From NCBI GenBank assembly GCA_963705595.1, contig CAVPKD010000004.1:381819-445818 (forward strand): DNA of 64,000 bases, read 5' to 3'. Below the pieces are notes generated by a model. It was not told the origin of the DNA and did not search any database. It worked only from the letters and a program-made list of their open reading frames with translations. This stretch comes from Nitrospirota bacterium (GTDB lineage Bacteria > Nitrospirota > UBA9217). Below, in pieces: positions 30,243-33,295 of the stretch. How positions within the stretch are numbered: position 1 is the stretch's first letter; the number at the start of each line of letters is the position of its first letter. The translations under genes were made by a program, and so were the position numbers.

Positions 30243-30271
30243 TTGACAAGTGAACAAATGTTCACTATACT
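30243..30271 (+). promoter_or_regulatory. sigma70 promoter with a LexA (SOS) box in the spacer
   Basis: TTGACA (30243) - AGTGAACAAATGTTCAC - TATACT (30266); GAAC-N4-GTTC palindrome; lexA is at the end of the cassette. Confidence 0.85.
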
Positions 30272-30283
30272 AGATAGTGTCCT

Positions 30284-31125
30284 ATGGGAGTCGAGATCAA
30301 TGAATTAATAAGCGTGGGGGCGGTTTTTCCCCGCGGCAGGATCAAGCCGGTCTGGTTTGTCTGGAAGGGAAGACAGATCCGGATGCAGGAGATCACCTTC
30401 ACATGAAGGGCGCGGGCATGCAGTGCGGGCATCCTCCACTTCTCGGTGACGGACGGGCAGGGACTGTATGAGATCTGCTTTGACATCCTCCCCGGCCTGA
30501 AGGCCGAGGATTCCCGCATCAGGCTCTACATCTACTGAGAGCCAATGCAGATTCTGTTCGCAGGTGCGGCAGAGATGTTTACCGCTTCCCCGATTCATGG
30601 GCTGATACAGATGACCTGGTGTTTCTCCAGGCGAACCGGTTGACTGCAGGCTGTGCCAAACAGCCACTACTCCAAAAACCACCTGCTGGTTTCAGGAGAT
30701 ACCTTTTACGGATACCCGTTGATTATGGCACCGAATGTTTTGCTTCATCTATTATTCTTAAGGTTCCCAACGTTGATCGTTGGGTTACCGCGAGCGTATG
30801 CATCGCGAACAATTGATTCAGCGAAACTATTGAGTCGGCGTCGTAATCTTCTTTGTAGGCAAAAGTTTTACCCGGTGACCTTCTCACCGGAACCCCATAC
30901 TTCTGGTTTCAAAGAACAAAACAGGGATGGTTCTCCCTTGTAGTGTTGCTTATTAAAATGTATCGAATGAACTGTTATTTGTCAACAGTAAATCATTGGC
31001 CCAATTTGGCTTCGAACCATATTAGGCCGGCGCCTTATATCCCCGTCCTGAAGAGACGGGGTTTTACTGCGCAAATGGATAATGCCGAGAGTTTCAACTG
31101 GAGACTAACGAAAGCAGAGACTTAA
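30284..31125 (+). pseudogene. About 80-aa small SOS-cassette protein (DUF6504-like), interrupted by an IS element and carrying an in-frame TGA (30404)
   Basis: Removing 30480-31078 restores MGVEINELISVGAVFPRGRIKPVWFVWKGRQIRMQEITFT*RARACSAGILHFSVTDGQGLYEICYNAESFNWRLTKAET*. Confidence 0.8.
30480..31078 (-). mobile_element. Non-autonomous IS200/IS605-family element (599 bp, internally deleted tnpB)
   Basis: Minus strand: TTAT|CCATTTGCGCAGTAAAACCCCGTCTCTTCAGGACGGGG (left end hairpin); GAATCCTCGGCCTTCAGGCCGGGGAGGATGTCAA| (right end); TnpB-like remnants SIVRDAYARGNPTINVGNLKN and IRKRYL..WSSGCLAQPAVNRFAWR; no target duplication. Confidence 0.88.
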
Positions 31126-31347
31126 ATCTATGTTTTACCGCAGAGATCGCAGAGAGGAAACTAAATGGTAGCGCAAGAGCTTTGGTATAAATGTTGCTGG
31201 TTAAAAATCATATCTGAAGCTGACCGGATGCAACGTCGGATTGCTAATCAACTGTAATGCAAAATATTTTGAAAGATGGCATTAAGCGCGCAGTGAATAG
31301 CTTCTAAGAGTTCTCTGCGTTCTTAGCGAGCTCTGCGATAAGAAAAC

Positions 31348-32565
31348 ATGAAAACAATCCTTCATATCGATATGAACGCCTTCTTCGCTTCGGTGGAGCA
31401 GCGTGCGGACCCGGCGCTCCGGGGCAAGGCCATGGCTGTGGTTGGGTCCGAGCACCGGGGCGTCATTCTTTCTCCGTCGTACGAAGCGCGGGCGTTCGGC
31501 GTGAAGACAGGGATGATGTACTGGGAGGCGCGGCAGAAGTGCCCGGAGATCGTCCTCGTCCCCGCGGAGTCGGCCAAGTATTCCTATGCCTGTGAGCAGC
31601 TGATCGAAATATGGAAAGCTTTTACGCCGATTGTCGAGCTGTTCTCTATCGATGAGGCCTTCCTGGACGTGACCGGATGCCATGCGCTCTTTGGTGATCC
31701 CGTACGGATCGCTATCCAGATAAAAGAGCGGATCTGGCACGAGACCGGCTTGACCTGTTCCATCGGCATCGCGTCCAATAAACTCCTCGCGAAGCTCGGG
31801 AGCGATCTGCAGAAACCCGATGGCCTCGTGCTCATCTCCCCGGACGACGTGAGTGATGTGCTCGAAAACCTGCCGGTGAAGGAATTGTGCGGTATCGGAC
31901 CAAATATTACCCGGCATCTTGCTGCCATGGGAATTCATACCTGTGGAAAGCTCGGCCGTGCTCCGCTCCAGCAGCTCATATCCCGGTTTGGGATCATCGG
32001 TGAGCGGCTCCGCAACATGGGGCTGGGCGTGGACGACGATCCCGTGGAGCCGCTGGAGTCGCAGGAAGAGGGAGAGGCGAAGTCCATGGGGCACAGCATG
32101 ACCCTTGACGAGGACTGCTCGGATATCACCATGATTGAGCGCCATATCCTTCAGCTTTCGGAGAAGGTGGGGCGCAGGCTGAGGCGAGGGCTGTACGGCG
32201 GACGGACCGTATCCCTGATTATTCGGTACGCGGATTTCCATACGTTCTCGAAGCAGCGGCAGCTTCGCCATTCTGTCAACCATGGACTGGACATTTATGC
32301 TGCGGCCCAGGGTCTGTTCCGCGAGACCAAGCTCCTGCAGCCGGTGAGGCTTGTGGGCGTGAGCGTATCGAGCCTGGAGCGGAGGATGGTGGAGATACCG
32401 CTCTTCGTGGGTGAGCGGAAACGGAAGTTCGTCGCAGAGGCCATGGACGAGATCAATGACCGGTATGGTGAATTCACGGTCACCTGGGGAACGCTCGCCG
32501 AACGGCATCGGCATGAGCGGGTCATTTCCCCCGCATGGAGGCCGACAGGGGACCGGCAATATTGA
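31348..32565 (+). CDS. dinB: DNA polymerase IV (Y family)
   Basis: HIDMNAFFASVEQ, SYEARAFGV, SIDEAFLD, NKLLAKLGSDLQKPDG. Confidence 0.95.
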   Translation: MKTILHIDMNAFFASVEQRADPALRGKAMAVVGSEHRGVILSPSYEARAFGVKTGMMYWEARQKCPEIVLVPAESAKYSYACEQLIEIWKAFTPIVELFSIDEAFLDVTGCHALFGDPVRIAIQIKERIWHETGLTCSIGIASNKLLAKLGSDLQKPDGLVLISPDDVSDVLENLPVKELCGIGPNITRHLAAMGIHTCGKLGRAPLQQLISRFGIIGERLRNMGLGVDDDPVEPLESQEEGEAKSMGHSMTLDEDCSDITMIERHILQLSEKVGRRLRRGLYGGRTVSLIIRYADFHTFSKQRQLRHSVNHGLDIYAAAQGLFRETKLLQPVRLVGVSVSSLERRMVEIPLFVGERKRKFVAEAMDEINDRYGEFTVTWGTLAERHRHERVISPAWRPTGDRQY

Positions 32566-32680: not shown

Positions 32681-33295
32681 ATGAAAAAAAGAATCACCGA
32701 CCGCCAGCGGGAGATTTACGAGTTCATCCGAACCAGCATCGAGGGGCGGAGCATTCCTCCTACCATAAGGGAGATCGGGGAAGCATTCGGGATCCGTTCC
32801 ACGAATGGCGTGGAGAAACACCTTGCAGCGCTTGAGCGGAGCGGGTTCGTGATGCGGGAACGCGGAAAATCTCGCGGTATTTCGCTGCGTGCTGACGGGA
32901 AAAGACCGCTGGCAACGGTTCCCCTCCTTGGGAGGGTGGCGGCCGGTATGCCTGTGCTCTCGCCGGAAAACAATGAAGGAGAGTTCGCGGTGGACATTTC
33001 CCTGTTCAAGCTCAGATCTACCCATAATCTGTTCGCCCTCAAAGTAAAAGGCGAGAGTATGGTCGATGCGCATATCGTTGATGGCGATATGGTCATTGTC
33101 CGTGTCCAGTCAGCGGCGCAGAACGGAGACATCGTCGTTGCCCTGGTGAATGGCGAAGCCACGGTCAAACGTCTATTTGTCGAGAAGAGCCGTGTCCGTC
33201 TGCAGCCCGAGAACAGCAGCATGAAGCCCCTCATTATAGACCGTGGAGATTTTCGTATTGTTGGCAGGGTGGTGGGCGTGGTCAGAAGAATATAA
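32681..33295 (+). CDS. lexA: SOS repressor LexA
   Basis: PPTIREIG..STNGVEKHL wHTH, VAAG cleavage site, GESM (Ser), TVKR (Lys). Confidence 0.95.
   Translation: MKKRITDRQREIYEFIRTSIEGRSIPPTIREIGEAFGIRSTNGVEKHLAALERSGFVMRERGKSRGISLRADGKRPLATVPLLGRVAAGMPVLSPENNEGEFAVDISLFKLRSTHNLFALKVKGESMVDAHIVDGDMVIVRVQSAAQNGDIVVALVNGEATVKRLFVEKSRVRLQPENSSMKPLIIDRGDFRIVGRVVGVVRRI

Follow-up and report, generated by a model that had tools for sequence, protein, structure and literature searches.

The 64,000-nt stretch of DNA analyzed here (the window, to whose numbering all positions below refer) belongs to a Nitrospirota assembly (GCA_963705595.1, contig CAVPKD010000004.1) and carries, ahead of dinB and lexA, an 80-codon gene that is split by a 599-bp segment. 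This segment is almost certainly a deleted derivative of an IS200/IS605 transposon. It reads on the minus strand, from 31078 to 30480, holds solely remnant peptides and no transposase gene, and resembles the palindrome-associated transposable elements (PATEs) and the MITEs (miniature inverted-repeat transposable elements). The first-pass annotation had described it as a minimal element with intact ends that interrupts an SOS-regulated gene, can be excised precisely and carries a stand-alone omega-RNA. The features of the locus are collected in Table 1.

Table 1. Features of the element, the interrupted gene and its neighbors, in window coordinates
Feature	Position	Strand	Basis or remark
Non-autonomous IS200/IS605 element, PATE/MITE-like, internally deleted tnpB	30480..31078	minus	599 bp; boundaries common to 12 genomic copies
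Target tetranucleotide and predicted transposon-associated motif (TAM) TTAT, flanking, outside the element	31079..31082	minus	plus-strand reading ATAA
Left end: guide tetranucleotide AAAA (31062-31065) and subterminal hairpin (31041-31061)	31041..31065	minus	fold, conservation
Promoter-like site TTGACA-17-TACATT, toward the omega-RNA region	30957..30985	minus	10/12 consensus matches
Short-form-specific hairpin CCGGTGA-GAAGG-TCACCGG (7 bp, GAAGG loop)	30872..30890	minus	pattern search
Remnant of the tnpB RuvC-II region, TnpB residues ~256-300 (45 residues)	30730..30855	minus	element nt 224-349, other frame than 3′ remnant; tblastn with full-length TnpB
Remnant of the last ~64 tnpB codons, TnpB residues 378-441	30522..30713	minus	element nt 366-557; tblastn
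Predicted omega-RNA scaffold of the sense overlapping transcript RNA (sotRNA) type	30489..30704	minus	Rfam, fold, covariation, conservation
Right end: guide tetranucleotide GAAT (30510-13), hairpin (30490-30509), 10-nt tail with cleavage site TCAA (30480-83)	30480..30513	minus	
Predicted 16-nt guide AGCAGAUCUCAUACAG	30464..30479	minus	flank 3′ of the right end; length assumed from other TnpB systems
Host promoter TTGACA-17-TATACT with spacer palindrome GTGAACAAATGTTCAC (LexA-box-like)	30243..30271	plus	11/12 consensus matches
Host gene, 5′ part (80-codon gene)	30284..30479	plus	translation; in-frame TGA at 30404-30406
Host gene, 3′ part, codons 66-80 and stop	31079..31125	plus	script join, orthologue comparison
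dinB, Y-family DNA polymerase	31348..32565	plus	Pfam IMS 6e-49, IMS_C 2e-26
lexA	32681..33295	plus	Pfam LexA_DNA_bind 4e-22, Peptidase_S24 4.5e-33

Boundaries, ends and the interrupted gene

Searching the assembly that holds the window (G000; 3.6 Mb in 10 contigs, 78% complete), we found 51 places matching the element, 12 of which, the window copy included, are approximately full length (~595 to 599 bp). Aligned with 40-nt flanks, these 12 short copies reproduced the boundaries proposed in the first-pass annotation, that is, a start right after TTAT and an end in TCAA. TTAT lies directly 5′ of the start of homology in 10 copies, the remaining two having TCAT and TAAT, and it also adjoins most left-end matches among the 23 listed. 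In all 12 copies the homology ends in ...GATGTCAA, stopping after ...GGATGTCAA, and is followed by unrelated flanks, indicating independent insertions rather than duplicated segments. A search with a 30-nt right-end motif located 29 occurrences in this genome, 28 of which are terminated by TCAA.

The interrupted gene confirms the boundaries independently of the repeat family. Joining 30284-30479 to 31079-31126 by script yields an 80-codon product with the C-terminal end ...GLYEICYNAESFNWRLTKAET, compared with ...GLYEICYNAESFKWGLTQAET in an orthologue from the same genus. The orthologues are uninterrupted here (...YEICYNAES..., DNA GAGATCTG[CT] TA[TC]AA..., with the site reading TATAA or TACAA), and the join gives YEICYNAES exactly as they do. 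Deleting the element thus restores the host frame, as had been claimed, and the joined flanks equal the orthologue sequence, with no target-site duplication. A counterpart of the N-terminal 40 residues of the host protein was found in 16 of 41 genomes searched (the window's own included), among them all three other genomes of the genus; in the orthologous loci of the same genus there is no insertion and the 80-codon gene is intact. The window carries a second lesion that the first-pass annotation had missed: the TGA at 30404-30406 stands where all 10 orthologues have TGG (Trp). The only Pfam match of the host protein, DUF6504, is below threshold (best E 0.00097; 6 of 7 orthologues).

At the left end, TTAT is followed by 13 nt, AAAA and the hairpin CCCCGTC-loop-GACGGGG, which places the hairpin foot 17 nt from the target. 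Folded as DNA, this end reaches −12.4 kcal/mol (z −2.5 versus shuffles), and it is conserved across 26 genomic matches. At the right end, the hairpin CCTCGGCC-TTCA-GGCCGGGG has GAAT immediately on its 5′ side, and TCAA terminates the element 10 nt past the hairpin foot; the fold of the right-end piece alone is indistinguishable from that of shuffles (z −0.9). Both subterminal hairpins, already proposed together with the adjacent AAAA and GAAT, are kept in all 12 copies, and there are no terminal inverted repeats.

Elements of the IS608 type recognize a cleavage site by base-by-base pairing with a guide tetranucleotide. Here the corresponding pairs would be AAAA with TTAT and GAAT with TCAA. 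In the cited parts of the literature on IS608 of Helicobacter pylori, the cleavage sites are TTAC and TCAA, the guides are AAAG and GAAT, and TCAA lies 10 nt 3′ of the hairpin foot (PMC3201880, PMC5934647). On that description, both elements have subterminal hairpins and a left guide directly 5′ of the hairpin, both insert 3′ of a tetranucleotide without duplication, and GAAT, TCAA and the 10-nt spacing of the right end are identical; the present element differs in TTAT/AAAA instead of TTAC/AAAG and in having no tnpA. The fourth base is thus changed in both the left target and its guide, which would fit recognition by pairing.

Beyond this genome, named genome records yielded 48 stretches that fit a degenerate 35-nt right-end pattern (GAAT, hairpin and AGGATGTCAA). 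Going by the record titles, at least seven phylum-level groups are represented; the taxa named are Nitrospirota, Syntrophobacteraceae, Gammaproteobacteria, Acidobacteriota, Dormiibacterota, Parafrankia and others, and Nitrospirota metagenome-assembled genomes (MAGs) are among those records that carry the exact right end. The spread over such varied taxa indicates that this type of end is widespread and its cargo interchangeable. In one MAG, many of the pattern matches sit at contig ends.

The surroundings of the host gene bear on its proposed SOS regulation. The promoter with its box is present in all 12 loci compared (the window's own and 11 orthologous ones), with an exact GAAC-N4-GTTC in nine and one or two mismatches in three. 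GAAC-N4-GTTC is a LexA site type. In the window and, some 30 to 40 nt ahead of the gene, in loci L030 to L040, the conserved promoter encloses the palindrome GTGAAC-N4-GTTCAC between −35 and −10. Several orthologous loci, across several genera, likewise have dinB behind the small gene. Given the operator-like palindrome, which is conserved, and the neighboring dinB and lexA, SOS regulation of the host gene is plausible and the LexA operator is predicted. The 80-codon gene ahead of dinB would resemble an uncharacterized small SOS-box gene.

Short copies, full-length relatives and candidate transposases

Eight longer elements in the same genome have the ends of the short form, sharing ~50 nt with it on the left and ~228 nt on the right. 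Of these, seven measure 1,478 to 1,494 bp and one 1,089 bp; all encode only tnpB, with an open frame of at least 413 residues in six; the other two are frameshifted and deleted, respectively. Both tnpB elements inspected for start codons encode 441-residue TnpBs, one of which shows the Pfam domains OrfB_IS605 and Cas12f1-like_TNB. In these full-length relatives the tnpB frame stops ~42 nt short of the right end. Aligned to Cas12f structures, the parent TnpB has IVGDL under MEDL, so that the canonical RuvC-II glutamate position holds glycine, and its RuvC-III motif is NADVN. Large TnpB clades with the same RuvC-II replacement (RIIr) have been described; in the cited part of that work a substitute glutamate is proposed, with consequences stated there as yet to be tested (PMC10691335). 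The parent TnpB may be likened to the RIIr clades through this glycine and the NADxN form of RuvC-III.

What the short form keeps of such a parent is the left end, the tnpB promoter and first-codons region with an extra ~49 bp, two TnpB remnants and the right end. Both remnant peptides proved TnpB-like by tblastn, as anticipated; 42 of 64 residues (66%) are identical in the 3′ remnant, which has one internal stop in the window copy. No conserved open reading frame (ORF) was found in the short form: all frames in the middle are disrupted among the aligned copies, because of 2-nt and 1-nt indels there. From element nt ~372 (window 30707) onward, short and full-length forms are similar, and the Rfam match described below begins 3 nt away from this point (30704). 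The deletion thus precisely spared the scaffold: as the first-pass annotation had proposed, the 3′ block of tnpB was kept up to the right end while most of the gene was lost. The promoter-like site of the element aligns with the promoter-like T[AG]GACA-17-TATAAT upstream of full-length tnpB. The short form also has a hairpin of its own, with 16 pattern matches; 13 have the arms GGCAA/TTGCC, compared with GGTGA/TCACC in the window copy, where two adjacent pairs are changed on both sides and the stem is kept.

Relatives with these ends are thus numerous: the window's genome has 11 further short copies and the eight tnpB-only elements, and two sister species, where the short-form architecture also occurs, contain others. 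Of 31 genomes searched, four gave matches to short-form DNA, namely, the window's own and all three others of the genus (in sister species G002 only end-sized ones); it was not found in the other 27. This distribution makes it highly improbable that a full-length tnpB element decayed in place and that the short form is unique to this locus. While both remnant peptides derive from TnpB and lie in different frames, as such decay would leave them, the same breakpoints recur in the 11 other copies at unrelated sites, and further copies exist in two sister species.

Since shorter derivatives exist, the description of the element as minimal is relative. In G000, left-end linker and hairpin are fused directly to the right-end tail GGAGGATGTCA at C6:~839530-839590 and C10:~139945-140005, forming mini-PATEs of ~50 to 60 nt. 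At C1:279499-279728, a derivative of ~230 bp joins element nt 14-192 directly to nt 546-599 and is a deletion form without most of the scaffold.

We also considered that the element might be a domesticated regulator, its RNA or its promoter and hairpins controlling the SOS cluster through antisense into the small gene or termination before dinB. The promoter-like site is indeed antisense to the host operon, and the left-end hairpin, when read in the sense direction of the host, runs into TTTT (31041-31070, plus strand), a terminator-like arrangement; the insertion could be polar on dinB. Yet the other 11 copies lie in unrelated contexts, the loci of the same genus lack the insertion and have the gene intact, and the TGA speaks of decay of the host gene, not refinement. 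We consider a regulatory role very unlikely.

The first-pass annotation had called for a search for autonomous tnpA/tnpB elements with the same ends, and the answer was split: the genome holds the tnpB-only relatives and a sister species holds a tnpA, but none was found in the own assembly, despite 10 matches to Y1 transposases. Six of these matches belong to a 1,998-bp tnpA and tnpB family with another target and other hairpins, and C2:447771 has yet another pair of ends. Ends were inspected for these seven of the 10 matches (the other three are C6:612729, C5:355700 and a second fragment near C10:57701), and neither the left- nor the right-end motif of the element was found around the eight best Y1 loci. 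The 1,998-bp family is of IS605 type, with divergent tnpA and tnpB, a TTGA-like target and different ends; it comprises four full copies that are 95 to 97% identical (G000 C4:218088-220084, C10:115923-117920, C3:109605-111602 and C10:56170-58167) and two internally deleted ones (1,159 and 1,169 bp).

Sister species G002 has ends of the same build around a tnpA of 148 residues and a tnpB of 399 residues with the canonical LEDL: on the left TTAT, a 13-nt linker, AAAA and the hairpin CCCCGTC...GGCGGGG, and on the right GAAT, a hairpin in which one pair is compensated, and AGGATGTCAA. The encoded TnpA is, by this likeness of ends, a candidate for the transposase that recognizes the element. As its counterpart in the window's genome, the best match, which is 44% identical, was rejected. 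The G002 element (L048, 1417-3167) is autonomous, its tnpB being of a different TnpB lineage from that of the parents and its ends of the same type; it has tnpB-only relatives with 67 to 68% DNA identity at G000 C4:321085-322028 and C10:302666-303251.

A predicted omega-RNA scaffold and its conservation

A covariance-model search had been suggested as a check on the omega-RNA. In Rfam, sot0042 (RF02656) matched end to end (model positions 1-174 of 174) with 53 bits and E 3.4e-12, although this is below the gathering score of 88, and HgcC (RF00062) gave a weak match of 25.5 bits. The 243-nt RNA folds with a z of −4.0. As far as the cited parts of the source on sotRNA and HgcC go (PMC4615843), our candidate is like these RNAs in its position at the 3′ end of tnpB, in the overall order of helices and in a terminal GC-rich tetraloop hairpin followed by GAGGAxGTCA; it differs in its bacterial rather than haloarchaeal host, in scoring 53 against 88 bits and in extra nucleotides in two internal loops. 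Gomes-Filho et al. also report there that a truncated tnpB pseudogene contains a sotRNA and that PATEs are transcribed (PMC4615843).

For comparative analysis we aligned 24 scaffold rows, made up of the 12 short copies of the own genome, seven of the eight full-length elements (the C5 element was left out) and five short copies from sister species, and modeled a structure of seven helices on the Rfam alignment and the minimum-free-energy (MFE) fold. Of the cells at its 49 pairs, 96.2% are paired, compared with 34 to 59% when partners are slid. Changes on both sides occur in seven pairs (21 cells), and none of 500 shuffles reached the covariation score. Helix 1 contains two pairs that are A-U in the short forms but G-C in the full-length ones (7 and 4 of 23 distinct rows). 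An RNAalifold consensus, which shares helices 3, 5 and 6 with this model, was set aside; its fold is partly different and pairs the scaffold start with the region before the right hairpin.

The 12 short copies fall into a core of 10 with 91 to 97% mutual identity, the window copy (81 to 83% identical to the core) and one copy on contig C8 (79 to 82% to the core, 78% to the window copy). Divergence is distributed unevenly along the element (Table 2). The conserved scaffold stretch far exceeds the ~35 to 50 nt that the transposase needs at the right end, and since this stretch no longer codes for protein in the short copies, the excess points to the RNA or to some other information read from this stretch. 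Together, the Rfam match, the covarying helices, the conserved scaffold and the retained promoter region argue for the omega-RNA proposed in the first-pass annotation. As a full-length parent of the window lineage, a site in G001 was considered for its 91% match to nt 371-599 and rejected, as it has no upstream tnpB. This site (L108, G001:C35:11400-13400, minus strand) is an isolated block of scaffold and right end, with neither a left end nor tnpB within ~1.5 kb upstream.

Table 2. Pairwise identity of short-copy lineages by element region
Element region	Window-core	C8-core	Window-C8
nt 61-223	0.74	0.73	0.68
nt 224-349	0.76	0.75	0.71
Scaffold, nt 372-560	0.91	0.89	0.89
Right end, nt 561-599	0.93	0.88	0.90

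Proposed movement and retention in trans

Twenty public runs hold part of a 1,251-bp stretch of the locus, and we compared Logan contigs of four DNA runs from four studies at 90% likeness. The filled site is bridged in all four runs (X1, record 6; X2, records 9 and 15; X4, record 24; X5, record 31). In addition, one contig from X1, at depth 6, passes from 30479 straight to 31079; exactly 599 bp are missing from it, and the position of the joint is unambiguous. An empty allele with the very junction foreseen in the first-pass annotation thus exists; the contig may be an excision product or come from a never-inserted strain. The X1 and X2 contigs over 30404-30406 show no difference, which means that the filled allele carries the TGA there too.

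We propose that the ancestor was a tnpB-only element of IS1341 type within the IS200/IS605 group, from which two internal deletions would have removed most of tnpB, and that the deleted form itself then multiplied. Insertion directly 3′ of the minus-strand TTAT would have proceeded through single-stranded DNA, with a Y1 TnpA acting in trans to cut and join it. As there is no duplication, excision by TnpA would restore the host sequence exactly. From the retained promoter a precursor would be transcribed whose 3′ part is the omega-RNA, with a guide reading into the flank. This predicted guide, AGCAGATCTCATACAG, corresponds to the minus-strand flank 30479-30464 and stands directly 3′ of TTAT in the joined allele. 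TnpB made by one of the approximately six intact full-length relatives would load the omega-RNA and cut the empty allele at TTAT plus AGCAGATCTCATACAG, after which recombination with an occupied sister copy would reinstate the element. In this way, an element without proteins of its own would borrow both its mobility, from TnpA, and its retention, from TnpB.

We put the probability of this whole proposal, that is, a deleted derivative moved by TnpA and maintained by TnpB in trans, at about 0.6. For the step of TnpB working in trans, we regard the chances as even. The comparisons above show what the element is, where it begins and ends, its copy family and parentage, the conservation of its RNA structure, the exact sequence of the empty site and the natural occurrence of that allele. 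We infer the transcription of the element, the loading of TnpB, the cleavage and the present-day mobility from the features described above.

Several points weigh against the proposal. No tnpA with the ends of the element was found in the own assembly, which at 78% completeness lacks ~22% of the genome. The sot0042 score falls short of the family's gathering score, and the pairing and covariation counts are inflated by the relatedness of the rows and by a structure drawn from one aligned sequence. The scaffold of the short form is ~15% different from that of the full-length elements and has its own sequence type of helix 1, so that its compatibility with full-length TnpBs is assumed. With glycine at the RuvC-II position, the activity of these TnpBs would depend on the "rearranged site" argument made for the RIIr clades (PMC10691335). 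The empty site is seen in a single contig, with a shorter side of 30 nt and at 90% likeness, and may stem from a related never-inserted strain. Finally, the window copy is 17 to 22% diverged from the other 11 copies, which together with the TGA lesion fits an old insertion that may no longer move.

These last points lead to the alternative of a fossil hitchhiker, namely, the same kind of element, inert in this genome for want of a cognate TnpA and with an omega-RNA that is not made or not used, whose scaffold would look conserved only because recent spreaders needed a working right end. The missing tnpA, the 78 to 83% identity of the window copy to the others, the extra nonsense codon expected of a long-dead gene and the insertion being fixed in the contigs of all four metagenome runs examined would all agree with it. 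However, the conserved scaffold spans ~190 nt, with compensatory pair changes, against the ~35 to 50 nt that TnpA requires; the promoter region has been kept as well; one contig shows the exact empty site; and ~22% of the genome is missing from the assembly while a matching tnpA occurs in a sister species. We hold an inert fossil to be unlikely, though a serious contender. Of the readings compared, the one given in the first-pass annotation has the best support.

Elements of this kind have been described before. PATE-like elements that have the ends of tnpB elements, and often encode omega-RNAs requiring TnpB in trans, appear in the cited part of a preprint by Meers et al. (PMC10055086). Judged by that part, the Geobacillus stearothermophilus PATEs are like ours in lacking protein genes, in sharing ends with tnpB relatives, in retaining the predicted omega-RNA and in TAM and target motif, and would be like ours in depending on TnpA and TnpB in trans. 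The present element differs in its size of ~600 bp, in keeping the tnpB promoter region and a RuvC-II fragment, in a hairpin of its own, in its phylum and in that its own assembly yielded no matching TnpA. A 271-nt PATE-like element is reported for Halanaerobium hydrogeniformans (PMC7290912); according to the portion cited, it too combines a left hairpin with the last tnpB codons and a full right end and has no ORF, but that element exists as a single copy, whereas the present one, of ~599 bp, has 12 copies that fall into three diverged lineages. Our search of the TnpB, PATE and MITE literature found no paper devoted to omega-RNA-only elements, with supplements, which may hold PATE tables, lying outside that search. 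The kind of element is already in print, and the locus reveals no new kind of system.

What the locus adds is an unusually complete body of internal evidence: parents, three lineages and covariation, a scaffold better conserved than the middle, the exact empty site and, from a sister species, a candidate TnpA. We tentatively entertain a further reading, which we think somewhat less probable than its opposite, in which the short form is a successful "guide-only" hyperparasite, each copy programming the TnpB of another element to defend its own site, and in which the lineage was selected to keep promoter, full scaffold and its own hairpin while tnpB was shed. If this were true, the guide-only route would have given rise to 12 short copies compared with about six intact protein-coding parents, and the ~90% versus ~72% conservation contrast would reflect selection on RNA-guided retention.

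For the host, the locus documents a knockout of a conserved small gene that heads a LexA-box/dinB/lexA cluster. For the transposon family, it offers a natural test case for the dependence of protein-less IS200/IS605 derivatives on RNA-guided homing by a TnpB made elsewhere, which has so far been stated in passing: a defined TAM (TTAT) and guide, an empty allele known to the base, three diverged lineages of one short form, about six open-frame tnpB parents that share its ends, and a sister species with a candidate TnpA.

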